Assembly (NCBI GenBank): GCA_016708955.1
Contig: JADJES010000003.1
Coordinates: 192,720 to 224,719, forward strand
Length of the DNA: 32,000 bases
Source of the DNA: Nitrosomonas sp.
Lineage (GTDB): Bacteria > Pseudomonadota > Gammaproteobacteria > Burkholderiales > Nitrosomonadaceae
Direction: 5' to 3'
This document shows positions 3,247-29,854 of this stretch, in pieces. A program made the translations under genes and the position numbers. Under the pieces are notes generated by a model. It searched no databases. It was given only the letters and a program-made list of their open reading frames with translations, and had not been told where the DNA came from. How positions within the stretch are numbered: position 1 is the first letter of the stretch; each line of letters starts with the position of its first letter.

Positions 3247-4590
3247 TCACAAGTGTTTGATCAGTACCTTCGAGCGGCGTCGGTAATTGTATAAATTCTG
3301 TTTGGCTTTGGGCAATTCAGCCGGCGTGGCTTCGGTGAAGCCGTGTTCAATGAACCAATGCGTGGCATGCGTTGTGAGCACAAATAGTTTGCGAATGTTC
3401 TGGGCAATAGTTTGGCTTTCGATATGTTTGAGCAAACGGTTGCCGTACCCCAAATCACGATAATCCGGGCGGATTGCCAAGCAGGCGAGTTCGCAGGCGT
3501 GTTCTTCAGGAAACGGGTACAGCGCAGCGCAACCCAGGATGACACCGTCATGTTCGAAAACCGTAAAACGATCAATTTCAATTTCCAGTAATTCACGATT
3601 ACGTCTCACCAGAATGCCTTCAGTTTCCAGCGGTTCAATCAGTTGCAGAATACCGCCGACATCTTCTATTCGGGCTTTTCTAAGTGCTTGCAATGTTTCC
3701 TGCGAGATCATCCAGCCGATGCCATCGTGCGTGAAAAGCTCTTGCAGGATGGCACCATCGCCGTGGCGGCTGATTAGATGTGTTCGTGTGACATGCGTTT
3801 CACAGGCCTTGATTGCACAGCGTAGCGATGAGCGGATTTCGTCGGAGAGTAAAGCGCTGGTTGCCGCTGCTTTGTTTTCGAGTAACGATTTACTTTCTGC
3901 GACAGTGAGTTCTCGCGAGAGTGCTTCAGGATTGTTGGCGGAGGTTGCTGCGGTATCCAGGGTATCCAGAAGAAAAATCAGCTTCTCGGCACTGAGAGCA
4001 ATCGCGACTTCGGTAACCACATTTTCCATCGTGAGATTAAAAATCTCACCGGTCGGTGAATAGCCCAGTGGTGAAATCAACACGACATCGTTTTGTTCCA
4101 AGCGAGCATGGATAGCTTGCGCATTTATCTTGCGCACTTTTCCGGTATGCATCAAATCGATACCCTGAATAACACCGTACGGACAAGCCGTGACAAAATT
4201 TCCGCTACTTACGTGGATGGAAGCATTGGCCATCGGTGAGTTGGGTAAACCCAGCGAGAGCAATGCGGCAATTTCATGATGCACGCGTCCTACCGATTCT
4301 TTGACACATTGTAGTGCGGCGGAGTCGGTAACACGCATGCCCATGACCGACTGCGTTTCCAATTGCGATTCATCCAGACGTAATTGGATTTGCGGGCGTG
4401 CGCCGTGGACAAGTACCAATCTGACGCCGAGGCTGGCGAGTAAATTGATATCGTGAATAAAGCTGACAAATTTTGCATCGGTGACCATTTCGCCACTAAA
4501 ACCAATGACGAAGGTTTTACCCCTGAATGCGTTGACGTAAGGCGCAACGGAGCGGAACCAGGAAACAAAATCAGTGGTGGTGTTATTCAT
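3247..4590 (-). CDS. argA: Amino-acid N-acetyltransferase (N-acetylglutamate synthase), 447 aa
   Basis: It has an N-terminal amino-acid kinase fold (FVIGFSGE...LVLVHGARPQI) and a C-terminal GNAT domain (ACLAIRPDYRDLGYGNRLL). Length and architecture are typical of ArgA. Confidence 0.9.
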   Translation of the reverse strand: MNNTTTDFVSWFRSVAPYVNAFRGKTFVIGFSGEMVTDAKFVSFIHDINLLASLGVRLVLVHGARPQIQLRLDESQLETQSVMGMRVTDSAALQCVKESVGRVHHEIAALLSLGLPNSPMANASIHVSSGNFVTACPYGVIQGIDLMHTGKVRKINAQAIHARLEQNDVVLISPLGYSPTGEIFNLTMENVVTEVAIALSAEKLIFLLDTLDTAATSANNPEALSRELTVAESKSLLENKAAATSALLSDEIRSSLRCAIKACETHVTRTHLISRHGDGAILQELFTHDGIGWMISQETLQALRKARIEDVGGILQLIEPLETEGILVRRNRELLEIEIDRFTVFEHDGVILGCAALYPFPEEHACELACLAIRPDYRDLGYGNRLLKHIESQTIAQNIRKLFVLTTHATHWFIEHGFTEATPAELPKAKQNLYNYRRRSKVLIKHL

Positions 4591-10217: not shown

Positions 10218-11520
<1,303 letters not shown>

Positions 11521-11692
11521 TCTAGGCGAGATTACCACTCCTGTCTCGATGGGGCGGGAATGGTAAAGAGATTTAAGTTACTTGCAGTTATGGAAACGAA
11601 TTGTAGTGCGACGGTAACTAGCAACAAAGCAGTATTAGAGGAATCGTCAAGTTTTCATATTTAATATCACACGAAAAAAGAAGGAGGGTCTA

Positions 11693-12517
11693 GTGAGTAG
11701 AACAGACGAAATTATAGCAGCGGCAAAGATGCCGCCAGAAGCAGTCAGGATGTCCAGATATATAGATGCAGTGTATTTTCCAATTCTCTGTATTCTTCTG
11801 GTTGGTACCTTTCACATGCATTTTATGCTACTGGCAGGGGACTGGGATTTTTGGCTTGACTGGAAAGACCGTCAATGGTGGCCTGTTGTAACACCGATTG
11901 TAGGTATCATGTACTGTGCAGCACTGATGTATTACCTGTGGGTAAACTATCGCCTGCCATTTGGCGCGACACTCTGTATCGTATGCCTGTTAGTAGGTGA
12001 ATGGCTGACCCGTTACTGGGGCTTCTACTGGTGGTCACATTACCCAATCAACTTTGTATTGCCATCAACCATGATTCCTGGTGCGCTGATGTTAGATACA
12101 ATTTTGCTGTTGACGGGTAATTGGCTGATTACAGCATTGTTAGGCGGTGGATTCTGGGGATTGTTTTTCTATCCAGGCAACTGGCCGATATTTGGCCCAA
12201 CCCACTTACCAGTGGTTGTAGAAGGTGTATTACTGTCAGTAGCTGACTACACAGGGTTCCTGTATGTACGTACCGGTACACCGGAATATGTACGTTTAAT
12301 TGAACAAGGCTCACTGCGTACGTTCGGTGGACACACCACGGTGATTGCGGCCTTCTTTGGAGCGTTTGTATCCATGCTGATGTTCTGTGTATGGTGGTAC
12401 TTTGGCAAACTGTATTGCACCGCTTTCTACTATGTTAAAGGTGAAAGAGGACGTATCTCTATGAAGAACGACGTAACAGCTTTTGGTGAAAAAGGCTTTG
12501 CACAGGGGATCAAATAA
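11693..12517 (+). CDS. amoA: Ammonia monooxygenase subunit A (274 aa, GTG start)
   Basis: AAGGAGGG RBS upstream of GTG 11693. The translation carries the conserved AmoA core ([31 protein letters not shown]..., [28 protein letters not shown]). Confidence 0.97.
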
Positions 12518-13779
12518 TGAATATAAAAAGCATTTTAAAGCTGGGCGTATTAGGCCTGTATGGAGCTGCGATTGGAGCGGCATCACTGGCGGTGACGCTG
12601 GTAGTAGACGTAGCACCGGCAGCGGCACACGGTGAACGTTCACAAGAACCGTTCTTACGTATGCGTAGTATTCAATGGTACGACTTGAGATGGCAACCAA
12701 AAGTTACCAAAGTCAATGACATTGCTACCATGACAGGAAAGTTTCACTTAGCAGAAGATTGGCCACGTGCAGTAGGTAAGCCAACCCGTGCATTTTTTAA
12801 CGTAGGTAGTCCTAGCCCGGTGTTTGTACGTTTAAGCACCAAGCTGAATGGCGAACCGACCTTCATATCAGGCCCGCTGGAAATTGGACGTGACTATGAA
12901 TTTGAGGTGAAACTGAAAGCAAGGATCCCAGGACGTCATCACATGCACGCGATGGTGAACATCAAGGATGCAGGTCCTATTGCAGGTCCAGCCTCTTGGA
13001 TGAACATCTCAGGAAGTTGGGATGACTTTACCAATCCAATCACCACACTGACAGGTAAAACCATTGATCTGGAGACCTTCAACTTCAGCAATGGTATATT
13101 CTGGCACGTATTATGGTTAAGTTTGGGTTGCATTTGGATTGGCTATTTTGTAGCGAAACCGATGTTCTTGCCACGTAGCCGTGTATTGTTGGCGTATGGT
13201 GACGAACTACTGACATCGCCAACGGACAGGAAGTTTGGACTTGTATTTGCGATCCTGACCTGTGCGATCGTATGGGGAGGCTATCGTTATACAGAAAGCG
13301 TACATCCTTACACAATACCGATCCAAGCTGGTGAATCCAAAGTAGCACCAATGCCGATTGCACCGAACCCAGTTGCAATCAAAGTAACGCATGCTAACTA
13401 TGACGTACCAGGCCGCGCATTACGTGTGACCATGGAAATCACCAACAATGGAGACACTGCGGTCAACATCGGTGAATTCACCACGGCAGGTGTGCGTTTT
13501 GTTAACAAATTGGGACAGCAACACCTGGATCCGGATTATCCAAGAGAACTGGTAGCCACTGGTTTGACCATGGATGACGACAAAGGAATTCAGCCTGGCG
13601 AAACCCGTGAAGTTAATATGGAAGCCAAAGATGCGTTGTGGGAAGTACAACGTTTGATGGCACTGTTGGGTGACCCAGAAAGCCGCTTTGGTGGCTTACT
13701 GATGACTTGGGACCAAGAAGGCAATCGCTATATCAATAGTATTGCTGGCGCAGTTATCCCAGTCTTTACCAAACTATAA
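12517..13779 (+). CDS. amoB: Ammonia monooxygenase subunit B (420 aa)
   Basis: The start ATG overlaps the amoA stop by 1 nt (TAATG at 12515-12519). The protein has a signal peptide, then [19 protein letters not shown] and the cupredoxin-like domains typical of AmoB. Confidence 0.97.
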
Positions 13780-16886: not shown

Positions 16887-18971
16887 CTATTGTTGTTTAG
16901 GTTGCTTGACATCAGATTTTTTACGCTTACTTTTGGTTTTAGTAATAGCTTTTTCATCTGGTCTAATTTTTGCATCGTCAACAATGTTATTGGTTTCGGC
17001 TATCTTTTCTACTGGACTGATCGCTTCAGATTGAATATTTACTTTCTTCTGCTCGTTGATTCTTACCTTGCCGCTGGCAGTTGTATCCTCATTAGCTTCA
17101 ACTTCTTCGTGAGAAATGGCTTTGTCGCTGGCCAGACGGTGCTTGGGTATCCAGATTTTTCCGATGGGAATGTGATCCAGTCGGCGCCGGCTTCCGTACA
17201 TCAGATTTACCATACCTCTTGATACAAAGGTTGCAGTAAATACAGAAGTTAAGATACCTAAGCAAAGTACTACCGCAAAACCTTTAACTGGTCCCGAGCC
17301 AAAAGCAAATAAAGCAATACCAGCGATTAAGGTCGTAATATTAGAATCTAAGATCGTGCCAAACGCACGTTCATATCCGGCATGGATCGCGAGTTGCGGA
17401 GAAACACCAGCACGTAACTCATCCCGAATACGTTCATTAATTAGGATATTCGCATCGATAGCCATGCCCACAGTCAACGCCAGCGCAGCCATCCCGGGTA
17501 ATGTCAGTGTGGCTTGCATGATGGATAATAAGCCTACCAATAGCAGCAAATTAAAACTAAGTGCTATTACTGAAATTACACCAAATGCTGTGTAATAGAT
17601 CATGATGAAGATGGCAACAGCAAAGAATCCATAAAGTGTCGAATTGAACCCTCGAGCAATATTATCAGCACCCAAGCTTGGACCAACTGTACGTTCTTCA
17701 ATAATATCCATCGGTGCGGCCAATGCACCTGCACGCAGTAACAATGCAACATCGCGAGCTTCCATACTGGTCATACGCCCGCTGATTTGGACACGCCCGC
17801 CGCCGATTTCTTCACGTATAACTGGTGCTGTGACTACTTCAGTTTGATTTTTCTCAATTAAAAGTATTGCCATTCTTCTACCAACGTTTTCACGCGTTAA
17901 CTGCTTGAAAATACGCGAACCATTGCTATCCAAATTAATATGCACCGCCGGTTGATTATCTTTATCAAAGCCGGGCTGTGCATCGGTAATGCGCTCACCT
18001 GTGAGTAACACCTGTTTCTTGACGAGTATCGGACTACCGCCGCGTTCCTCATAAAGCTCCGTCCCAAATGGAACTTTTCCACGTATGGCAGCGTCGAGAT
18101 CATGTTCGTCATCGACCATACGAATTTCCAGTGTGGCTGTTCGTCCCAGAATATCTTTTGCCTTGGCTGTATCCTGAACGCCCGGTAATTGAACAATGAC
18201 ACGATCCGCTCCAGCTTTCTGAATGATCGGTTCAGCAACACCCAGTTCATTAACTCGATTACGCAGTGTAGTAATATTCTGCATTACGGCTGAATCTTGC
18301 ATGCGCACTTGAGCTTCGGGTTTGATCGCAGCAATGAGGTGATATCTGTTATCGGCTTCCTTTTCAATTAAACCGAGATCAGGGTAATTCGATTTTAATT
18401 CAGCTTCTGCCTTTGCGCGTGCTTCGGTATCACGAAACTTCAAGATGAGTTTTTTATCTTGTTTCTCAAGTCCGGTATATGGGATTCTATTCTCACGTAA
18501 TGTGCTGCGAATATCGGCGCTGTAACGATCCAGTGATTTCTCGAGTGCGCCCTCCATATCAACTTCAAGCATAAAATGCACGCCGCCACGCAAGTCAAGC
18601 CCAAGATACATTGGTAAAGCGCCAAGATTGGTTAACCATTGGGGGGAGTTGGGTAGTAGATTCAGTGCAACAATGTATTCTTTGCCGAGCGTTGATTCCA
18701 AAAGGTCTTTCGCTTTGATTTGTATGTCAGTATCAGTGAAACGTGCTTTGATACTGCCTTCTTCAAGAAAAATTCCAACGGTTTCAATACTGGCTTTTTT
18801 TAATGCGTCTTCGACTCGTTGCAGCAAGGCTGTATCAACATTTGCTGAAACCCGTAACGATGAAATCTGTACTGCGGGAGATTCACCGTAAAAATTAGGT
18901 AATGTGTAAAGCAGTCCGAGTAGAAGCGAAACCGCAATAATCAGATATTTCCAAAGTGCGTAGCGGTTCAT
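16887..18971 (-). CDS. secD: Protein translocase subunit SecD with a ~80-aa K/E-rich C-terminal extension (694 aa)
   Basis: The SecD core is present (LGLDLRGGVHF, TVGPSLGADNI, GMAIDANILINERIRDE). After the last TM helix the ORF continues with a charged low-complexity tail (...EANEDTTASGKVRINEQKK...TKTKSKRKKSDVKQPKQQ). Confidence 0.93.
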   Translation of the reverse strand: MNRYALWKYLIIAVSLLLGLLYTLPNFYGESPAVQISSLRVSANVDTALLQRVEDALKKASIETVGIFLEEGSIKARFTDTDIQIKAKDLLESTLGKEYIVALNLLPNSPQWLTNLGALPMYLGLDLRGGVHFMLEVDMEGALEKSLDRYSADIRSTLRENRIPYTGLEKQDKKLILKFRDTEARAKAEAELKSNYPDLGLIEKEADNRYHLIAAIKPEAQVRMQDSAVMQNITTLRNRVNELGVAEPIIQKAGADRVIVQLPGVQDTAKAKDILGRTATLEIRMVDDEHDLDAAIRGKVPFGTELYEERGGSPILVKKQVLLTGERITDAQPGFDKDNQPAVHINLDSNGSRIFKQLTRENVGRRMAILLIEKNQTEVVTAPVIREEIGGGRVQISGRMTSMEARDVALLLRAGALAAPMDIIEERTVGPSLGADNIARGFNSTLYGFFAVAIFIMIYYTAFGVISVIALSFNLLLLVGLLSIMQATLTLPGMAALALTVGMAIDANILINERIRDELRAGVSPQLAIHAGYERAFGTILDSNITTLIAGIALFAFGSGPVKGFAVVLCLGILTSVFTATFVSRGMVNLMYGSRRRLDHIPIGKIWIPKHRLASDKAISHEEVEANEDTTASGKVRINEQKKVNIQSEAISPVEKIAETNNIVDDAKIRPDEKAITKTKSKRKKSDVKQPKQQ

Positions 18972-21792: not shown

Positions 21793-21879
21793 GCCGGGAT
21801 GGCGGAATTGGTAGACGCACGGGACTCAAAATCCCGCGAAGGCGACTTCATGGGGGTTCGATTCCCCCTCCCGGCACCA
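21793..21879 (+). tRNA. tRNA-Leu (anticodon CAA), 87 nt including encoded CCA
   Basis: Cloverleaf folded by hand: acceptor GCCGGGA/TCCCGGC, D arm GCG-GAATTGGTAGA-CGC, anticodon stem CGGGA/TCCCG with loop CTCAAAA, long variable arm, T arm GGGGG-TTCGATT-CCCCC, discriminator A and CCA. Confidence 0.92.
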
Positions 21880-21967
21880 AATTAATGATTTTATAACAAT
21901 AAAATCAGTATCTTGAAAATCTTATAAATCTAAAAAATCATTGGGTGCATTAGAAAAGTGCATACTA

Positions 21968-22159
21968 ATGACATCAAGAACCCCCTCATATATTACAAAG
22001 AATCGTCTTGGGATATATTATTCCCAATACTGTTTGCCAAACATTTTTTTTAAAAATGATGGAGAATCAGTTAAACGAATATTTCGCAAATCTTTACATA
22101 CTCGAAACAGACGAGAAGCACTAAAACAATCTAGAGTTTTGTGGTTAATTATGGATTAA
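21968..22159 (+). pseudogene. N-terminal stub (~63 aa) of a tyrosine-recombinase/phage-type integrase
   Basis: It starts 89 bp after the tRNA-Leu 3' end. The translation (PSYITKNRLGIYYSQYCLPNIF...RIFRKSLHTRNRREALKQSRVL) follows the pattern of integrase N-terminal arm domains (R.G.YY.R..P......SL.T.d..eA). The ORF stops after ~63 aa and no catalytic domain follows. Confidence 0.45.
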
Positions 22160-22189: not shown

Positions 22190-22520
22190 TCACAGGGAAC
22201 ATAAAAAAGCTATCGGGATGATTGGTTAATTTTTTTTAAAATAACTATCAGTTAACGAATAGACGAATAGTTCATCTATCATCTTATTTAACATAAGATT
22301 TTTTCTATTATCCACAATTTCTGTGGATAACTTTGTGGGTAATCATTCGACCTGAGCAGCTAACTCACATATTTCTAAGGGTTTTCCTTGGATTGCTTAA
22401 TTATCTGACACTTTCATTACATGTGATTTATCATATGGTTATAATTTATTTGCTATATTGAAATGGAGCAGTATAAATTAATTTCTTTATCGTTTCCAAA
22501 CTGTGGATGATTTAGAAAGT
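22190..22520 (+). repeat. DnaA-box/promoter module, copy A
   Basis: Box1 TTATCCACA 22308-22316, N5, box2 TGTGGATAA 22322-22330, CTT, box3 TGTGGGTAA 22334-22342, and box4 TGTGGATGA 22502-22510. The core 22300-22515 aligns with copies B and C, and weaker similarity to B extends upstream to ~22190. Confidence 0.85.
22405..22434 (+). promoter_or_regulatory. Candidate sigma70-type promoter inside repeat copy A
   Basis: -35 CTGACA (22405-22410), 18-nt spacer, -10 TATCAT (22429-22434). The same hexamer positions and spacer length are conserved in copies B and C. It points toward the TPR gene, whose start is 267 nt downstream. Confidence 0.35.
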
Positions 22521-22700
22521 CAAGCAAGAATTATGAAACTGATTGTGACAGTTTGTGTGAAAGGTAGGTACTTCCCGAGTTTTGATTGAGGTGGGTGATT
22601 AAAACCTCATCAAAATTCTAGCGTAGCGAAAAATAAAAGTGGTAAACATTTTTTATCGCATATATTAGCTCAACATTAAGATCAAATAGCCGAGGTCAAA

Positions 22701-24245
22701 ATGGCGATTATTTCTCGTATACCGCATAGCACCATTTTCTGTTTCTTGGCCATATTGTTATGCGGATCTATAACCACGGTTTATTCACAAACTACTGAAC
22801 CAGAAACAGCGCAACAGAAGATTGCATATTCAGAAACTGTTATCGATGAAGTTATTAAAAGAAGCCTGCAGCGTTTGGAAGACAAGGAGCGGAAGAATTA
22901 TGAGCTAGAGCTGGAAGGTCAGCGTAAGAGCATAGATTGGCTTTTCGCATTATTGACGCTTGTGACAGCATTTGTTGCGCTGATTGGTGTAGTGGCGCCG
23001 TTCATGATGTTTCAAAGTAATAGGAAGCAAATGCAGGGAATGCTGGATGAAGTCAAAGAAGTTGCTGAGAAAATTCGATTGCATGAGGAAAGCGCGAAAC
23101 AATCTGCGGATAATACCCAGCAATATGAACATAAGGCTAAAGAGCTGACTGAGAAGTTGGATCATTATAAGAGTGGTCAGTCTTCCAGCAAAATAGAGAG
23201 TCAGGAGATTACTAAGGCGGCAGAACAGATTCAACATGATCCACAATTTGATCCCAAGCCGGGATTACGTGCTGCCGCTGTTGCGGCAAGCATTGAGAAT
23301 CAACCGGAAAAAGCATATAAGCTATGGGAAGCTTTAGCTGAATTAGATCCATCTGATGTTAATGCGTTATTCAACGCAGGTTATTGGGCGCTATATTTAG
23401 CAGATAAATTGAAGGGTAGCGAATCCTCAGAATGGCTTATACGAGCTAGTGACAAATATCAAAAATTAGTAAGTATTCGACCAGATTTTTATGAAGCAGT
23501 GAATAACTGGGGAATAGCGCTGGCTAATCAAGCCAGGGAATTGGCGAAAAGAGATTTACCTGCGGCTCGTGCTTTATGGCATGAAGCCGCTAAGAAATAC
23601 CAGCAGGCTTTAAGCATCAATCAGGATTATCATGAAGCAGAATTTAATTGGGGAAATGCACTGATTGATGAAGCTAAGGAATTGGGAAAAATTAATTTAC
23701 ATAAGGAAGCTCTTGATTTATGGCATAAAGCCAGTGAGAAATACCAGCAAGTTTTAAGACTCAGGCCAGATGATTTTGAAGCAACATATTACTGTGGCGT
23801 TGCATTGACTAATGAAGCTATGGAACTCGCAGAAAGTAACTTGCCAACAGCGCGTAATCTGTGGCATGAAGCTGGCGATAAATACAAGCGGGTATTAGGT
23901 ATGAATCCAGATTATCATAAAGCTGCGGATGACTGGGGATTTGCATTGCTAGAGGAAGCCAATGCTATTGCAGCTACGGATGGTGATCAAGCAAACGAAT
24001 TACGGGGTCGTGCTGAACAGTTATTATTACAACATGCCAAAGCTGTACCAGAAGTGGTGGCTTATAACCTGGCTTGTGTTTACGGACAACGGGGTGATGT
24101 GTCGAATTGTCTGTATTGGTTACAGACCGCGCAATTGCCTAACAAACTTGTATCCTGCGTGCATTTGCAAACGGACGCCGATCTGGATGCGGTACGGAAT
24201 CATCCGGATTTTCAAGCCTGGTTGCAGTCGGTTTGCTCACACTAG
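22701..24245 (+). CDS. Membrane-anchored coiled-coil / TPR-like repeat protein (514 aa)
   Basis: GAGGT RBS 5 nt upstream of the start. The protein has an N-terminal signal-like hydrophobic segment, a second TM segment (WLFALLTLVTAFVALIGVVAPFMMF) and a charged coiled-coil region. Five tandem 47-48-aa TPR-like repeats follow, the best three at 23493-23918. A typical TPR C-terminal cap ends the protein (YNLACVYGQRGD...LDAVRNHPDFQAWL). Confidence 0.75.
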   Translation: MAIISRIPHSTIFCFLAILLCGSITTVYSQTTEPETAQQKIAYSETVIDEVIKRSLQRLEDKERKNYELELEGQRKSIDWLFALLTLVTAFVALIGVVAPFMMFQSNRKQMQGMLDEVKEVAEKIRLHEESAKQSADNTQQYEHKAKELTEKLDHYKSGQSSSKIESQEITKAAEQIQHDPQFDPKPGLRAAAVAASIENQPEKAYKLWEALAELDPSDVNALFNAGYWALYLADKLKGSESSEWLIRASDKYQKLVSIRPDFYEAVNNWGIALANQARELAKRDLPAARALWHEAAKKYQQALSINQDYHEAEFNWGNALIDEAKELGKINLHKEALDLWHKASEKYQQVLRLRPDDFEATYYCGVALTNEAMELAESNLPTARNLWHEAGDKYKRVLGMNPDYHKAADDWGFALLEEANAIAATDGDQANELRGRAEQLLLQHAKAVPEVVAYNLACVYGQRGDVSNCLYWLQTAQLPNKLVSCVHLQTDADLDAVRNHPDFQAWLQSVCSH

Positions 24246-24449
24246 ATTTCAATCAGAATTTCGTTTTTTAATAGTTCGTAGACTAATGAAATTTCCTGAA
24301 TTCGATACGGCAGATGTGATTGATCGTCATGCAGGGATGCTGATGTTGCGGACTGGTAGAGTATTCAACGAGAGTTAAGTCCCCAATTAATAGAGTTGGG
24401 ATGCTTATAAGCTTAAAATATGAAGATTATAAGAGTAAAGGGGGCGATG

Positions 24450-24757
24450 CTGGGAGAACATAAAAGCAATAGTAGCGATTAATCATTTTCCTAAGAAATA
24501 CCATTTCTAAAGTTATCGTCTTATTTGGTATGGGATTTTTCTTATTATCCACATTTTCTGTGGATAACTTTGTGTGTAACTGTTTTATTTGAATAATTAG
24601 CTCTCAGAATTCTAAGGGTTTTCCTTAGATTGATTAAATATTTAACACATTACTTATGTGAAATTTATCATGTAGTTAGGGGATGCTTTTCTGCTTAACC
24701 TGAAATTGTGTTGAGTGATTTCTGTAACCTTCTAAAACTGTGGATTATTTGCTAGGA
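24450..24757 (+). repeat. DnaA-box/promoter module, copy B
   Basis: Box1 TTATCCACA 24545-24553, N5, box2 TGTGGATAA 24559-24567, CTT, box3 TGTGTGTAA 24571-24579, and box4 TGTGGATTA 24739-24747. Confidence 0.85.
24642..24671 (+). promoter_or_regulatory. Candidate sigma70-type promoter inside repeat copy B
   Basis: -35 TTAACA (24642-24647), 18-nt spacer, -10 TATCAT (24666-24671). It faces the 3' end of the convergent minus-strand gene 24798-25313. Confidence 0.3.
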
Positions 24758-24797
24758 AGTTATGGCTATCGAGTTATAAGCCACTGATCTGTTTTGC

Positions 24798-25313
24798 TTA
24801 ATCATCAGAACCGTGCCCATGACCTTTGCCTGGTTTGTAAGATTCAAGTTCAAAGTTCGATGAGCTGCCACGTTCTTTAAGTACAACAGAAAGTAAATCA
24901 CCACCATATTGGAGGCAAGGTATGATTAATTTGTCACCGTCAATAGTGGCATAACATTCACTGAGATCTACTGTGTCAGTAATTGGACAACTGGTAAGAT
25001 CTACTAATGTAACATCGGTTGCAGGACTGGTAGTATTATTATATGTTGTAATAACTGCAGTGCCATTCTTGATTACGATATCAGTTGCTGATGTACTCGC
25101 ACTTAAACCAAGATTACTCAAGCCTGCGTTAGTAAGGCATAAATTTTTAGAACTATCGGTGATGTTTTTTACGATTATCTGAGATCCATCCACGCTGTTA
25201 TCAAGGATGAAGATGGAATTGCCTACCACAGCTACGCTCTCAGCCAGTACACATTGCACTCCCGGTGTAACCAAAACTGTTGCGAATAATATTGATATTA
25301 TATTTCTTCTCAT
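24798..25313 (-). CDS. Hypothetical secreted protein (171 aa)
   Basis: ATG 25313 has GGAAAG 8 nt upstream (the ORF-track TTG at 25319 adds 2 aa). The protein has a signal peptide (MRRNIISILFATVLVTPGVQCVLA), a Ser/Thr/Asn-rich beta-type sequence with 4 Cys, and a GKGHGHGSDD tail. I recognise no family. Confidence 0.55.
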   Translation of the reverse strand: MRRNIISILFATVLVTPGVQCVLAESVAVVGNSIFILDNSVDGSQIIVKNITDSSKNLCLTNAGLSNLGLSASTSATDIVIKNGTAVITTYNNTTSPATDVTLVDLTSCPITDTVDLSECYATIDGDKLIIPCLQYGGDLLSVVLKERGSSSNFELESYKPGKGHGHGSDD

Positions 25314-25906
25314 AAACAAAACTTTCCAGAATGAAGGTTAAATAAATATTAAAGCATACTCCTGTTTCTCCATCTATACAGATTTCGTTTATACGTAGGG
25401 AATTATTCCAATTCGCAATAGAAAGAGAAATAATTCTGTTAGTTTAATGTTTTAAATACAGCATATATTTACATTTCTATCGCAAATATGAATTAGAGGC
25501 TATTTATTGCCGGTTACTCATTTCCTTAATACTTGTTGCGTCTATAATCACAAGCTGACACCATAAGGTAAAACCGGCACCTGGAATAGTTTTCTATCGA
25601 AAGATTAAGATTGTAAATGAGGAAACCCCTGGAAACGATTTGGACCATGATCAAGGTGCTTGTAATCATTAGGCGTATTGTGATGGTTCATATTTTCGAT
25701 GGGTGGTGTGCAGGATTGATGCAAAACGGATGCGTGGCATTTGTTTTCAAGTATTTGCCCAATTACCGATAGATTTTTCGTATATGGAACTAAGGGATTG
25801 CCCAATTTTTGTTCAACCAACCTTAACCCGTTGCGTTTTCACGGCATACGCTAGCCATTAATATGTCTAGATCATACGCGCTGTGGTGTGATCATCTTGT
25901 TCTTCT

Positions 25907-26059
25907 CTATTTTTTTGTCAGAAGCATCATTGCCGAGATGAAAGAGACTAGAAGGCCTAATAATATTGGCGCTAATACTATTTCATCATCAGTCACCACA
26001 AAATATACGGACAGAATCAAGGAAAATACTAGAGAGCCAATCATGCTAATTTTTTTCAT
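25907..26059 (-). CDS. Possible small two-TM membrane peptide (50 aa), below the ORF-track size cutoff
   Basis: Hand translation gives MKKISMIGSLVFSLILSVYFVVTDDEIVLAPILLGLLVSFISAMMLLTKK. This is two hydrophobic helices separated by TDDE, with KK at both ends. AAGGA lies ~9 nt upstream of the ATG. It is antisense to the less convincing track ORF 25863-26081. Confidence 0.3.
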   Translation of the reverse strand: MKKISMIGSLVFSLILSVYFVVTDDEIVLAPILLGLLVSFISAMMLLTKK

Positions 26060-26394
26060 ATCAGAACATCCTTTTTGGTAATTATTTAGTGATTCTAGAA
26101 ATTTTTTCCTAGAACTACCTTAACTTATTGATCTTGAATTACTCTACATTTAATCTGAAGAGTTTAGGTTGCCTGTGGCAACCCTGCCAACAGTATTTTT
26201 CGCATACCGAACACTAGCACACTCTCAACTTCATGGGTTTGCGCTAGATTAATAATCCAGCTCAACAAAGCGTAACGGCTTGGTAGATGAGTAGATCAAA
26301 ATCATCGGCCATAAGCCTCATGATGCCTGGCATATAACTAATGGACTAAGCGAGCATTTTGTTGATGCGCTATTATAAGGATACGGATGCAAGT

Positions 26395-26696
26395 ACATAC
26401 AATAGCAAAAGGAAATGCATGAGTTTCTGAGGCGTTAGTTAGTTCTTTGTTCAGGCAGAAATTTTCTAAAAATCGCCTTATTGATTATCCGTAAATTCTG
26501 TGGATAACTTTGTGGAAAATATCTATATTCACTAGTTAACTACTGGAACAATAAAGTTTAATTCTAGGGCTGATTAATAATTTTACACTTTCATTATGGG
26601 TTATTTATCATTTAGTTAAGTATCTGTTTCATTTCTGTATGAAATTAAGAAATGAATTTTCTATGTTTTGTTGATACTGTGGATAAACAATATCCT
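26395..26696 (+). repeat. DnaA-box/promoter module, copy C
   Basis: Box1 is degenerate, TTATCCGTA 26485-26493. N5, box2 TGTGGATAA 26499-26507, CTT, box3 TGTGGAAAA 26511-26519, and box4 TGTGGATAA 26678-26686. The copy ends 20 bp before the IS target duplication. Confidence 0.8.
26582..26611 (+). promoter_or_regulatory. Candidate sigma70-type promoter inside repeat copy C
   Basis: -35 TTTACA (26582-26587), 18-nt spacer, -10 TATCAT (26606-26611). It points into the IS element and, beyond it, toward the ABC-F gene. Confidence 0.3.
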
Positions 26697-26713
26697 ATAA
26701 CAATGAATCTAGT

Positions 26714-27821
26714 GGTTCATCCGGCAAGTGCGTACTTGTTAGTCAGAAATGCATGTTGAAATAAAGTGAATTAAAGGTTGAAATTATCTCTGATTTTCAA
26801 CGAAGAGGTTTTTTCAACATGTCGACCAGTTTGCTGTATCACGCCTTTGGTATAGTTGGTTATTTTTATCAAAGCACTTGTTTTATTGCGGGTGTCATAG
26901 TTGTTGCAATACAAGCGGATCATTGGCGATTGAGATGTCCGGTATGTAAAAGCCGCGAGATACATTGCCGGGGAAAGTTGGTCTCTGAATAAACGTTATC
27001 GGTTGCCGAAATTGGCCAAGATAAAACGCATTGCGCTGGATGAAATATACCAAGGCAAGAAGCTGGGTTATTTAACGATAGTTCTGGATCTTCAACGTGG
27101 GGCAGTGATTTTTGTTGGCAATGGGAAAGGTGCCGATGCACTGATTCCGTTTTGGAAGCGTTTGAAACGATCGGGTGCACGGATTGAAGCGGTTGCGACC
27201 GACATGGGGCCAGCATACATCAGTGCGGTGCGGGCTAATATCCCAGATGCAACGCTAGTGTTCGATCACTTCCATATTATTAAGCTGTTCAACGAAAAGT
27301 TGACAAAACTGCGTCGTGATCTGCAACGAGAAGCAGAAAATGGGTTGGGCAAACCCGTTTTGAAGGGCATTCGCTGGCTGTTGCTGAAGAACCCTGACAA
27401 CCTGGATGACAAGCGCAATGAACGTCAACGTCTGGACGAAGCATTAAAGCTCAATGAGCCCTTGGCAACGGCCTATTACATGAAAGAAGAGTTACGCAAT
27501 ATCTGGCATCAACCGGATAAACTCTCAGCTCAAAATGCATTGGATGAATGGGTAAAAAAAGCCGCTGCTTCGGATGTCAACATGCTCAAGCAATTCTCTA
27601 AAACTATTGCAGCACACCGCTCAGGTATCCTGGCTTATTTCGATTTTAATGGTTTATCAACCGGGCCGTTGGAAGGTACCAACAACAAGATAAAAACTTT
27701 GCACAAAATGGCCTATGGTTTCAGAGATGTCGAGTTCTTTAAACTCAAAATTATGGCGCTGCATGAAACCAATTATGTCCTTGTCGGTTAAACCCAAAAG
27801 TACGCACTTGCCGGATGAACC
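26714..27821 (+). mobile_element. ISL3-family insertion sequence, internally deleted derivative (1108 bp)
   Basis: Perfect 24-bp terminal inverted repeats: GGTTCATCCGGCAAGTGCGTACTT at 26714-26737 and its reverse complement at 27798-27821. They are flanked by a perfect 8-bp direct repeat AATCTAGT (26706-26713 and 27822-27829). The internal ORFs match ISL3 transposase N- and C-terminal parts. Confidence 0.88.
26819..27791 (+). pseudogene. ISL3-family transposase, disrupted (zinc-finger N-terminus and DDE domain in different frames, middle section missing)
   Basis: 26819-26992 encodes MSTSLLYHAFGIVGYFYQST...LRCPVCKSREIHCRGKLVSE*, the ISL3 N-terminal zinc-finger region. 27003-27791, in another frame, encodes the DDE_Tnp_ISL3 part (RIALDEIYQGKKLGYLTIVLDL..., IEAVATDMGPAYISAV, LEGTNNKIKTLHKMAYGFRD). 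The roughly 100-aa HTH section normally found between them is absent. Confidence 0.8.
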
Positions 27822-28000
27822 AATCTAGTTAAAAACCTTAACGTTATTATGAAAAAATTTGGTGTGTCAGTGTGAAGCTGGAAAAGCAGATTTTGTGTTA
27901 TTACATTTTTAATATGGATAATTGAGCTGTGTAACAACGGTTTGTTTTTGTGTATGGAAAATAAGAGTTATTTTGAATGTTCTATAATTATTAATAGCTT

Positions 28001-29854
28001 ATGCTAAATATTCAGCGATTGATCTATTTACAAGGCGGGATTCCGCTACTCGAAAATTGTGATCTACAGATTTTTGCTAATCAACGTGTCGGCCTGGTCG
28101 GTAAAAACGGTTGTGGTAAGTCTACTTTGTTCCGTTTGGTCCGGGGAGTGATCAAACCGGATAGTGGAGAAGTCAGTCTGCAGCCTGGGAAAACGGTCGC
28201 TTTTGTTGAGCAGGAAATCATCAATTCAAATCAGTCTGCGATTGAGTTTGTGCTTGATGGTGATGTTGAATTACGTCAACTGGAGAAGACCCTGGCCCAA
28301 GCAGAACATGATGCGGCCTGGTTTGAGGCGCAGCATCGTTATGAAGCGATAGATGGTTATACGGCGCAGGCGCGGGCATCGCAACTATTGAATGGATTAG
28401 GTTTTGCGAATCATACGCTGGAGAATCCGGTCAGTCATTTCTCCGGGGGCTGGCGTATGCGTCTAAACCTGGCTCGTGCCTTGATGCATCGTGCTGATTT
28501 ATTATTGCTGGATGAACCAACTAATCACCTGGATCTGGAAGCTATTCTCTGGCTGGAACAATATCTGTCGCGTTATCCGGGTAGTCTGATGGTGGTGTCA
28601 CACGACCGTGAGTTTCTCAATGCCTGCGTTAATCGCATTGCGCATATCAATGAACGGAAAATTGAAGTATACAGCGGTGATTATGATGATTTTGAGCGTG
28701 CTCGCGCTGAACGCCTAACTCAGCATGCTCAGGCTTTTCAGCAACAGCAGAGAAAGATCGCGCACATGGAAGATTTTGTGCGGCGTTTTCGTGCCAAGGC
28801 GACCAAAGCCAAACAAGCGCAAAGTCGTATCAAAGCGCTGGAACGTTTGACGCGCATTGCGCCGGCGCATGTTGAAGATGGGTATTTTGAATTGCAGATT
28901 GAAGCGCCTGAGCGTAGTCCTGATGTTCTACTGCGCGTAAAAGACATGAGCTTTGGTTATGACGATCACTTGTTGTTTCAACATGTTCATCTTATTTTAC
29001 AGGCGGGTGCCCGAATTGCCTTGCTGGGTCCGAATGGCGCAGGGAAATCCACACTAATAAAGCTTCTGGTCGGGGAAATTACTCCTACCTCTGGTACATT
29101 GGAATGGACGCCCAATATCCGTATGGGCTACTTTGCGCAACATCAGCTGGAGAATCTCGATGGTGATGCGACCCCTTTGCAGCATATGCGGCAATTGGCA
29201 CCAAAGCAGACTGAATTGGATTTGCGAAAATTCCTGGGGCGATTTGGCTTGGGGGGGGATAGTGAGGATCGTCCGGTAGCCAGTTTCTCCGGAGGAGAAA
29301 AAAGTCGCCTGGCACTTGCCCTACTAGCATGGCAGAAGCCACACTTACTATTGCTCGATGAACCAACCAATCATTTGGATTTGGAAATGCGCGATGCGTT
29401 AACTTTGGCGTTGGAAGCCTATACCGGCGCGGTGATTCTGGTATCGCATGATCGTAGTCTGGTACGTGCAGTGGCTGATGAATTGTGGTTGGTGGCTGAT
29501 GGTAAAGCACAATTTCTGGATGGTGATCTGGATGATTATAAAAACTGGATAGAAGCGCGTCGTTCTAGTGAAGTTGTAGAGTCACGATCTACTTCACAAA
29601 AAGTGCAATCCAGAACATCTGCAAAACCGAACAAAAAAGTACTGCTTTCCAAGCAATCAAAGCTTGAGGTTGCCCTAACGGTCGCGCAGAAGGAATTGGA
29701 TGAAGTAAGCCGCCAGTTAGCTGATCCGGCTATTTATGCGAGCCGTTCTCGGGATGAGATTGAACGACTCAGTGCAGTTCATTCGACACTCGAAAATAAA
29801 GTGGCCGAATTGGAAGAAAGCTGGCTGGAACTGGAGATGGCGCTGGAAGAGTAA
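28001..29854 (+). CDS. ABC-F family ATPase (two ABC domains plus a C-terminal coiled coil, 617 aa)
   Basis: Two Walker A motifs (GLVGKNGCGKST, LLGPNGAGKST), two LSGG signatures (FSGGWRMR, FSGGEKSR), no TM domain, a PtIM-like interdomain linker and a charged C-terminal helix. It resembles YheS/Uup. No obvious SD lies upstream. A TATAAT at 27983-27988 lies only 12 nt before the ATG. Confidence 0.9.
   Translation: MLNIQRLIYLQGGIPLLENCDLQIFANQRVGLVGKNGCGKSTLFRLVRGVIKPDSGEVSLQPGKTVAFVEQEIINSNQSAIEFVLDGDVELRQLEKTLAQAEHDAAWFEAQHRYEAIDGYTAQARASQLLNGLGFANHTLENPVSHFSGGWRMRLNLARALMHRADLLLLDEPTNHLDLEAILWLEQYLSRYPGSLMVVSHDREFLNACVNRIAHINERKIEVYSGDYDDFERARAERLTQHAQAFQQQQRKIAHMEDFVRRFRAKATKAKQAQSRIKALERLTRIAPAHVEDGYFELQIEAPERSPDVLLRVKDMSFGYDDHLLFQHVHLILQAGARIALLGPNGAGKSTLIKLLVGEITPTSGTLEWTPNIRMGYFAQHQLENLDGDATPLQHMRQLAPKQTELDLRKFLGRFGLGGDSEDRPVASFSGGEKSRLALALLAWQKPHLLLLDEPTNHLDLEMRDALTLALEAYTGAVILVSHDRSLVRAVADELWLVADGKAQFLDGDLDDYKNWIEARRSSEVVESRSTSQKVQSRTSAKPNKKVLLSKQSKLEVALTVAQKELDEVSRQLADPAIYASRSRDEIERLSAVHSTLENKVAELEESWLELEMALEE

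Follow-up and report, generated by a model that had tools for sequence, protein, structure and literature searches.

DARS (DnaA-reactivating sequence) sites and datA are central to replication timing in Escherichia coli and have been studied almost only in that species. The core of a DARS is defined by three DnaA boxes, of which boxes I and II stand head-to-head across 5 bp, an arrangement that has been called a prominent feature of these sites (PMC6868365; PMC5742627). In E. coli this head-to-head geometry drives the release of ADP from ADP-DnaA, by which ATP-DnaA is regenerated. DARS2 needs a site for IHF (integration host factor), formed by the IHF-binding sites IBS1-2, and also Fis sites, among which the Fis-binding sites FBS2-3 are essential. 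The activity of datA is the opposite one, hydrolysis of DnaA-ATP. Published work on DARS conservation covers only eight gammaproteobacteria close to E. coli, and one review sentence mentions "beta- or gamma-" proteobacterial species; the literature consulted held no paper that connects DARS with genera of Betaproteobacteria, with priA-hemE or with mobile elements. Described here are three repeated non-coding modules in a 32,000-nucleotide stretch of Nitrosomonas sp. DNA (contig JADJES010000003.1, positions 192,720 to 224,719), hereafter the window, whose DnaA boxes have the layout of a DARS core. By this layout, a putative DARS-type control element is placed in another bacterial class than that of E. 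coli.

Layout of the modules and comparison with DARS and datA

Three direct copies of the module, designated A, B and C, have cores that begin at 22308, 24545 and 26485, at intervals of 2237 and 1940 bp. An earlier note on this stretch had reported three same-orientation copies of a repeat built from DnaA boxes. Alignment and repeat search confirmed these copies, and the core coordinates given for them stood, but a segment of about 100 bp upstream also belongs to the module in A and B, which reach further than the note had drawn them. The parts of the three modules are as follows.

22190-22530, + strand: module A, whole, including the ~100-bp upstream segment common with B (alignment, repeat families D2-D4 and D12, nhmmer 219 bits)
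22308-22342, + strand: DARS-type core of module A, with box I TTATCCACA (22308-22316), ATTTC, box II TGTGGATAA (22322-22330), CTT and box III TGTGGGTAA (22334-22342)
22429-22441, + strand: IHF-like site of module A, TATCATATGGTTA, one mismatch to WATCAANNNNTTR; overlaps the TATCAT that the earlier note had read as a -10 hexamer
22502-22510, + strand: box 4 of module A, TGTGGATGA, 180 bp after box II
24427-24767, + strand: module B, whole (alignment, repeat families, nhmmer 212 bits)
24545-24579, + strand: core of module B, TTATCCACA-TTTTC-TGTGGATAA-CTT-TGTGTGTAA
24666-24678, + strand: IHF-like site of module B, TATCATGTAGTTA
24739-24747, + strand: box 4 of module B, TGTGGATTA, 180 bp after box II
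26455-26706, + strand: module C, the copy closest to the ABC-F gene (alignment, nhmmer 190 bits)
26485-26519, + strand: core of module C, TTATCCGTA (a degenerate box I)-AATTC-TGTGGATAA-CTT-TGTGGAAAA
26606-26618, + strand: IHF-like site of module C, TATCATTTAGTTA
26678-26686, + strand: box 4 of module C, TGTGGATAA, 179 bp after box II

In each copy box I is followed after 5 bp by an inverted box II and, after a further 3 bp, by a box III in the orientation of box II. A DARS carries at least one high-affinity consensus box, and here box II is the perfect 9-mer TGTGGATAA in A, B and C. An IHF-like site, TATCAnnnnGTTA, begins at +107 from box II in all three copies and matches the consensus WATCAANNNNTTR at 12 of 13 positions, and box 4 lies about 73 bp past it, in the orientation of boxes II and III. 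The distances from box II to box 4 are those measured in the earlier note.

Perfect TTATCCACA or TGTGGATAA 9-mers occur six times in the whole window, all within modules and exactly where the note had listed them (22308, 22322, 24545, 24559, 26499 and 26678); shuffled windows held a mean of 0.42 and never six. The composite TTATCCNNA-N5-TGTGGATAA-N3-TGTG has exactly three matches in the window, against 0.00 in shuffles. The four box-matching 9-mers that the note had assigned to each copy were found, but box I of C is a degenerate one. Near-invariant blocks are interspersed with diverged spacers of constant length, and the mean column identity of the A/B/C alignment is 69%. A and B have in common one 165-nt segment at 76% identity; over the 254-nt module alignment their identity is 69%, and either of them has 55% identity to C. 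No open reading frame (ORF) shared by the three copies was found inside the modules, in line with the earlier claim that none is conserved there.

The cores were compared with those of E. coli MG1655, in which DARS1 reads TTATCCACT-ATTCC-TGTGGATAA-CCA-TGTGTATTA and DARS2 reads TTATTCACC-TTTTC-TGTGGATAG-AGT-TGTGAAGAA. The modules have the core spacing and orientations of DARS2, including the TTC before box II, and both kinds of site are non-coding, with an IHF site (in the modules a predicted one) downstream in the same orientation and a further DnaA box about 180-200 bp away. They differ from DARS2 in that the IHF site starts at +107, against about +95 (IBS2) in E. coli, a shift of about 12 bp; IBS1-2 of E. 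coli spans about +79 to +107 from box II, an extent confirmed from published primers. In addition, the distal box of the modules is opposite in orientation to E. coli box V, their boxes I-III are nearer to consensus than those of DARS2, and they are multicopy, linked to mobile elements and in another genomic neighbourhood, E. coli DARS2 lying near mutH. With DARS1 the modules share the I-5-II-3-III core, the consensus box II and a promoter-containing intergenic setting (bioD-uvrB in E. coli), but DARS1 is about 101 bp long and needs neither IHF nor Fis, whereas the modules carry an IHF-like site and a fourth box.

The neighbours of the modules are tRNA-Leu, queA/tgt and ABC-F in Nitrosomonas, not bioD-uvrB or mutH, and those of the related sites described below are priA and hemE, so the modules are not orthologues of DARS1 or DARS2 by position. 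They belong nevertheless to a known kind, because the DARS core is exact and the IHF consensus is conserved in position. The earlier note had known of no description of such a family, a view that does not hold for the kind of element; it had named DARS and datA as loose precedents but had missed the exact I-5-II-3-III core. The kind of element being already known, what is new is the setting of this candidate DARS-type module, namely its taxonomic, copy-number and mobile-element context. Upstream of mutH in E. coli (locus L122, 1456-1490) a second head-to-head pair, TTATCCCAG-CTTTC-TGTGGATAA, also with a 5-bp spacer, is found some 320 bp away from the DARS2 core and is presumably part of the dispensable boxes IV-VI.

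The modules are also comparable with datA in outline. Read in reverse, E. coli datA consists of a head-to-head pair, 93 bp to an IBS in the same orientation and 69 bp to a further box, so that both systems would have IHF-looped DnaA boxes, with the IHF site some 90-100 bp from the pair and a same-direction box about 70 bp beyond it. This layout could support a datA-like sink or inactivator, in which IHF-looped DnaA on boxes II, III and 4 would stimulate DnaA-ATP hydrolysis or titrate DnaA and so restrain initiation. Boxes II, III and 4 of the modules point one way with the IHF-like site between them, as do the essential boxes of datA, and several brakes would seem easier to tolerate than several accelerators in a slow-growing nitrifier. 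The datA pair, however, is spaced by 3 bp and not 5, one of its members (box 4) is dispensable, and the essential boxes, all in one direction, include no tandem II-III pair at 3 bp; as an account of the modules such a sink is distinctly improbable. Like the modules, which stand beside tRNA-Leu, datA stands beside tRNA genes (glyVXY). The datA locus (L170, NC_000913 4392678-4392927) adjoins tRNA-Gly and queG, and the modules adjoin tRNA-Leu and queA/tgt, a resemblance that may be coincidence.

With somewhat more confidence than doubt, the modules are interpreted as DnaA-IHF nucleoprotein sites of the DARS2/datA class, which would modulate DnaA activity and not start replication. In the mechanism proposed, DnaA bound to the high-affinity box II would recruit a second DnaA head-to-head on box I across the 5 bp, and a third would join head-to-tail on box III. 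IHF, about 107 bp downstream, would bend the DNA sharply in a U-turn and return the DnaA bound to box 4 onto the core complex. The output would be release of ADP from ADP-DnaA and regeneration of ATP-DnaA. Such DnaA reactivation is the likelier activity because the core matches DARS exactly, with datA-like hydrolysis or titration as a close alternative.

Relatives in Nitrosomonas and other Proteobacteria

The earlier note had suggested a profile search for relatives. A scan of metagenomes, together with look-ups through QueA, gave 38 full-length Nitrosomonas copies whose flanks were compared. Among the locus labels used here, L131 denotes Nitrosomonas sp. Is79A3, L205 N. cryotolerans, L207 the record CP054180, and L171-L204 contigs from IMG/VR. 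In 37 of the 38 copies the IHF-like site lies 106-107 bp from box II; in 32 of them box 4 lies 177-180 bp from box II, a distance outside the search pattern; and TGTG stands at the box III position in every one. Conservation of the blocks is 0.87-1.0, against 0.68-0.73 between blocks, the values for box II and part of the IHF site being inflated insofar as the scan pattern fixed them. These figures bear out the earlier proposal that the geometry is kept while the spacers drift, and they support the selection on geometry that the note had suggested.

Orthologues of module A occur in Is79A3 (L131), L152, L166, L135, L139 and L157. In Is79A3 the A and B orthologues stand in the same order, and the B orthologue is then followed by the same 173-amino acid gene as in the window. 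The array is thus older than that split, and the note was right to doubt a recent duplication.

The ABC-F orthologue has a module upstream in L159, L156, L146, L151, N. cryotolerans and CP054180. The module is directly upstream in N. cryotolerans, where it has three perfect boxes, and likewise in CP054180, L159 and L156; copies of the C-type clade always have the ABC-F gene after them. Because a module is found there in N. cryotolerans, CP054180, L159 and L156, the ABC-F-proximal position is judged from this synteny to be old in the lineages that keep it. For N. ureae one contig was examined, and near its queA a module was not detected. CP054180 (in reverse-complement coordinates) has modules at 11367-11612 and 18006-18196, one of them an additional copy just after tRNA-Leu. 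Between tRNA-Leu and ABC-F the two enclose a block of four unrelated genes, which encode a TackOD1-domain protein, a glycosyltransferase, an OEP-like protein and a 357-amino acid protein. Two complete tandem modules, 313 bp apart (3790-3825 and 4107-4142), lie between tRNA-Leu and ABC-F in L159, from a more distant Nitrosomonas, and the second has a perfect IHF consensus, AATCAAATAATTA. A clade of modules (L133, L141, L143, L144, L145, L150, L137 and L167) shares an extra conserved segment in the ~150-230 bp after box 4 (...TTGCTTATCTGTTTTTGTTATCGACCGTAATTAAAATAACTTTAA...).

Beyond Nitrosomonas, an invariant 19-mer of the core, TTCTGTGGATAACTTTGTG, occurs in more than 120 species genomes; the figures that follow hold among the matches listed. 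There is one match per genome, a figure that does not give the total copies per genome, and the genomes are mostly Burkholderiales, Rhodocyclales and Nitrosomonadales, with several gammaproteobacterial orders. An IHF consensus, typically AATCAATGACTTA, lies at +105 to +112 in 57 of 119 analysable loci, for which the chance expectation is about 0.04 (calculated by the authors from the base probabilities of the pattern and not a tool result). A fourth DnaA box in the same orientation lies at +140 to +214 in 65 of the 119, mostly at +177 to +195. The start of priA is found 49-950 bp to the left of the 19-mer, reading away from it, in 43 of 120 loci, most of them within 250 bp (examples among L001-L120 are L002 4779, L019, L056 and L103), and hemE lies to the right in 34 of 120. 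The few loci in Firmicutes and Deinococcus are ordinary-looking origin regions without these features.

Single matches per listed genome, the IHF and box 4 geometry and the priA-hemE setting argue for a conserved chromosomal element and not a transposon. The Nitrosomonas module belongs, on these comparisons, to a predicted conserved chromosomal DnaA/IHF element of Beta- and Gammaproteobacteria. A priA-hemE-linked DnaA/IHF element was not found described in the literature consulted. The architecture is searchable (a I-5-II-3-III core followed by an IHF site at a distance of about 105 bp and by a fourth box at about 180-190 bp) and opens a test of whether cis-acting DNA regulates the DnaA nucleotide cycle outside the enterics. 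In IMG/VR, 34 viral contigs (L171-L204) carry a perfect core, TTATCCACA-N5-TGTGGATAA-N3-TGTG, and fall into two recurrent sequence groups; in none of these 34 does an IHF site or a fourth box stand where it does in the modules, and Mob_Pre and X206, two mobile-element genes described below, are encoded by none of them.

The wide family also bears on a quite unlikely reading, in which the module would be a DnaA/IHF-controlled sigma-70 promoter driving the downstream gene (ABC-F, the tetratricopeptide-repeat (TPR) gene or other cargo) and tying its expression to the replication cycle, with DnaA on boxes I-III (and box 4) acting as repressor or activator. The promoter-like hexamers of the earlier note, nTnACA-18-TATCAT, are indeed at an equal offset in A, B and C (22405, 24642 and 26582) and match the sigma-70 consensus at 10 of 12 positions. 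Same-strand genes follow modules A and C (TPR at 22701 and, if the intervening insertion sequence (IS) is taken out, ABC-F), E. coli DARS1 is itself within the uvrB promoter region, and the wide-family element stands in the priA upstream region. The supposed -10 hexamer is present but overlaps the IHF consensus that is conserved in position across the wide family, where the motif (AATCAATGACTTA) is a good IHF site and a poor -10. Moreover, priA lies across the core from this motif and is read outward, module B points at a convergent gene's 3' end, and downstream genes are not the same from copy to copy. Promoter-like matches in the region number 16, against 20.5 expected in shuffles, and are thus not in excess, and a promoter has no need of box 4 at a fixed 180 bp.

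Mobilizable elements and the origin of the array

The integrase gene directly adjoins tRNA-Leu in L123-L127, L130 and L131. In strains with an identical QueA, tRNA-Leu is followed by an element with the order integrase, DUF6387, helix-turn-helix gene and Mob_Pre relaxase, and L123 and L143 have such an element, intact, in the interval from tRNA-Leu to the module. The L123 module comes directly after the Mob_Pre relaxase and is about 80% identical to A, where the core genome is 98% identical. On this evidence tRNA-Leu(CAA) is an integration hotspot for mobilizable elements. In ten copies a gene, or gene remnant, for a protein of 206-217 amino acids (X206), a family situated between Mob_Pre relaxase and module, lies upstream of the module; where it could be placed (L143, L133 and L145), its 3' end is about 140-160 bp upstream of the module. 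X206 had only a sub-threshold Pfam match to TssR (17.5 bits, against a cut-off of 25.7) and none in NCBIfam or PHROGs. Homologues about 36% identical are on the small Polaromonas plasmids pW9NP1, next to parA, and pH8NP1; no module follows them, so X206 does not explain the module. The instances of X206 and the remnant of a relaxase gene in the window are as follows.

L143 7887-8507; L133 282-935; L145; L131 6654-7121: X206 gene or remnant
24298-24357 of the window, + strand: Mob_Pre relaxase remnant of 20 codons upstream of module B (tblastn with the L143 protein, assigned to Mob_Pre by Pfam; residues 67-86, 55% identity, E = 0.002)

Weak colinear X206 remnants were also seen upstream of the first L159 module and of the L156 module; no X206- or Mob_Pre-type remnants were detected in N. 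cryotolerans or CP054180. The genes behind the modules vary and include a Type ISP restriction enzyme, hsdM and a large ATPase/radical-SAM block, and modules are intact where the neighbouring mobile-element genes have decayed or gone. Since copies are linked to elements at the tRNA hotspot and gene remnants flank modules, the array in the window looks like a set of accreted, decayed insertions. A resident module beside the ABC-F gene would have come first. Mobilizable elements carrying, or having captured, a copy of the module would then have inserted repeatedly at the neighbouring tRNA-Leu, and their genes would at last have decayed while the modules were kept, leaving the order A, TPR gene, B, 173-amino acid gene, C and ABC-F. 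We infer that the element carries a module itself, rather than abutting a resident one. The pattern of copies flanking cargo in the earlier note is thereby retained and given a concrete candidate cause, the tRNA-Leu hotspot with copies linked to Mob_Pre and X206 genes.

This linkage could also mean that the modules serve the element's own replication, either as a DnaA-dependent hairpin for initiation on single-stranded DNA or as a small DnaA/IHF-dependent origin of the excised circle. The orientation of the module is always the same relative to X206 in the ten linked copies or to Mob_Pre in L123, and these element-linked copies retain a perfect or near-perfect box I. Single-stranded A and B fold into a hairpin whose 9-bp stem is perfect and whose loop has 5 nt (dG -7.4 kcal/mol, z about -5), and such a hairpin would rebuild a double-stranded DnaA box on transferred or rolling-circle DNA. 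DnaA-box hairpins are reportedly the priming sites of the "ABC-primosome" on plasmids, and ColE1 is said to have a DARS-like cluster close to its origin. A need for single-strand origins is known for integrative elements, for example the sso of ICEBs1 (PMC4595007). The modules resemble the ABC-primosome A site and this sso insofar as an inverted repeat of DnaA boxes near relaxase genes could form a hairpin, but neither C nor the wide family conserves that hairpin. The folding of copy C is weak (-2.9 kcal/mol), and yet this copy is kept beside ABC-F, and in the wide family box I is often too degenerate for a hairpin. The same architecture is found in chromosomal priA-hemE settings of many genera, singly among the matches listed; modules outlast the element genes, and the X206 homologues on Polaromonas plasmids are not followed by one. 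No repeated AT-rich 13-mers or DnaA-trio repeats lie beside the tandem boxes, where the spacers vary, and a hairpin role would leave the IHF site and the box 4 geometry unexplained. A function in replication of the element is therefore considered unlikely. A blastn search with module A against PLSDB and INPHARED gave no match, and a plasmid or phage origin was set aside.

Arrays in which direct repeats enclose unrelated cargo, seen in the window, in Is79A3, in CP054180 and in several metagenome contigs, bring in another possibility, a recombination or cassette-boundary site. Cargo would be gained by module-module exchange with a circular intermediate, in a site-specific manner or by homology in the invariant core of about 35 bp. 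Modules of the same clade have different downstream neighbours, among them restriction-modification and other defence-like genes, and the palindromic core is superficially like a recombinase site. Tyrosine-recombinase sites typically have a central spacer of 6-8 bp, however, and the 5-bp spacer of the modules is shorter. No recombinase is consistently adjacent except the tRNA-targeting integrase, and the repeat of the tRNA 3' end was not found at modules. A fixed junction after box 4 was rejected on alignment of the downstream flanks, in which homology breaks off downstream of the modules at variable positions. Integron attC sites likewise bracket unrelated, often defence-type cargo near an integrase as direct repeats, but the modules lack attC-type imperfect inverted repeats and intI, are about 250 bp long with DnaA and IHF motifs, and have no fixed junctions. 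The wide chromosomal family, with one match per genome among the matches listed, favours a DnaA/IHF role, and exchange between repeats may follow from their repetition and not be the selected function. A recombination site is accordingly a very improbable reading. A phage-type att arm was also rejected: the 3' end of tRNA-Leu is not repeated within or next to the modules, in the window or at related loci, and the 9-mers are the DnaA box, which recurs at non-mobile loci.

Three further readings, a chromosomal or vestigial oriC, a small-RNA gene and a miniature inverted-repeat transposable element (MITE), are together scarcely credible. An origin is suggested by the consensus boxes, the IHF site and the AT-rich DNA, box 4 after an AT-rich block recalling the arrangement of a DNA unwinding element and R1. 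The modules nevertheless have only four boxes each, with no low-affinity box array and no repeated 13-mers or DnaA-trio arrays, and they stand as three tandem copies conserved between species. The window contains none of dnaA, dnaN, gidA and rpmH, and cumulative GC skew rises through the region without a switch; the question raised in the earlier note, whether the window is the origin, is thus answered in the negative. The same locus is 0.33-0.53 Mb into the complete-genome records of Is79A3 and CP054180. As to a small RNA, the promoter-like site precedes a stretch of about 70 nt, but Rfam finds only tRNA-Leu in the window and RNAalifold, run on the putatively transcribed part of 15 diverse copies, gave 0 conserved pairs. 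The inversion of box I relative to box 4 might recall the ends of a MITE, but homology runs upstream of box I into the adjacent gene or the X206 intergenic region, and target-site duplications were not found. The only IS nearby, of the ISL3 family, is a separate insertion absent in L134 and L158. The note had recognised no IS, MITE, attC or CRISPR-leader family in this structure, and the module is none of these.

Several points weigh against the interpretation of the modules as DnaA-IHF regulatory sites. Binding of DnaA and IHF is itself predicted, from matches to consensus sequences, Nitrosomonas being assumed to have the same DnaA-box consensus as E. coli. The IHF-like site has one mismatch and also reads as the -10 of a plausible sigma-70 promoter. 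A Fis consensus (GnnYAnnnnnTRnnC) was found at a conserved position in none of seven module copies, and FBS2-3 are essential in E. coli DARS2. Since datA, taken in reverse, forms a comparable looped arrangement, the sequence does not show in which direction DnaA would be affected. In E. coli additional DARS copies do harm, so the presence of three or more modules calls for an explanation, and the linkage to mobilizable elements could mean that the function serves the element and not the host. Two matters of sampling point the same way: the pattern used to scan metagenomes fixed box II and part of the IHF site, so that decayed copies would have been missed, and the single match per genome in the wide family is subject to the limit given with it above.

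A wider proposal is possible but doubtful. DARS-type modules may be part of the backbone of a family of tRNA-Leu-specific integrative mobilizable elements of Nitrosomonas, whose transfer would shift the host's dosage of DnaA-reactivating or -inactivating sites and make initiation control mobile and variable in copy number. Leftover modules would serve as portable homology on which arrays of defence genes and other cargo are assembled, and the priA-linked element would be an unrecognised DARS of Betaproteobacteria. If modules have multiplied or moved with mobilizable elements, mobile DNA may tune or exploit the initiator of its host.

The island and its genes

The modules occupy an island that extends from tRNA-Leu to the ABC-F gene and is low in GC content, at 35-40% where the rest has about 46%. 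The earlier note's "dispersed" family is apt as to multiple copies, but those in the window all lie within this one island. To its left are queA, tgt, yajC, secDF and amoCAB, and to its right fliE and a gene for a sigma-54 regulator. In Nitrosomonas, a slow-growing and environmentally important nitrifier, candidate replication-control loci would thus lie beside the amoCAB-secDF-queA region. The other features of the island are as follows.

21793-21879, + strand: tRNA-Leu(CAA), left boundary of the island (ARAGORN and Rfam), beyond which GC content falls to 35-40%
22701-24245, + strand: gene for a TPR-repeat protein of 514 amino acids with an N-terminal signal- or transmembrane-like segment, cargo between A and B; partly deleted in Is79A3
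24798-25319, - strand: gene for a putative secreted protein of 173 amino acids without family match, cargo between B and C
26714-27821, + strand: ISL3-family IS between module C and ABC-F, with 25-nt perfect inverted repeats and a DDE_Tnp_ISL3 domain
28001-29854, + strand: ABC-F ATPase gene, which bounds the island on the right and is a conserved neighbour of the resident module

The 173-amino acid gene comes after B-type modules in Is79A3, L138, L146 and L147, and the interval between B and C also holds a tiny membrane ORF. Repeated TPR units are reflected in the TPR gene by three internal repeats at 23565-23983, each about 141-144 bp long, with 64-73% identity. A 72-amino acid ORF at 21941-22159 had the look of an integrase remnant by eye; it gave no family match, and no claim is made for it.

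The ISL3-family IS is flanked by an 8-bp duplication, AATCTAGT, at 26706-26713 and 27822-27829. This element is probably defective, because its transposase is split into ORFs of 57 and 262 amino acids. L134 and L158 are empty-site alleles of the insertion, and further copies of the same IS were seen at contig ends of L124 and L157.

Exact-protein look-up of the ABC-F and TPR proteins of the window returned no record, and synteny was traced through QueA instead. The QueA of the window is identical to that of a Nitrosomonas metagenome-assembled genome and 93% identical to that of Nitrosomonas sp. Is79A3. The amoCAB (ammonia monooxygenase) operon lies at 10711-13779, 8 kb upstream of the island, and the order amoCAB-secDF-yajC-tgt-queA-tRNA-Leu is kept in Is79A3, N. 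cryotolerans and CP054180.

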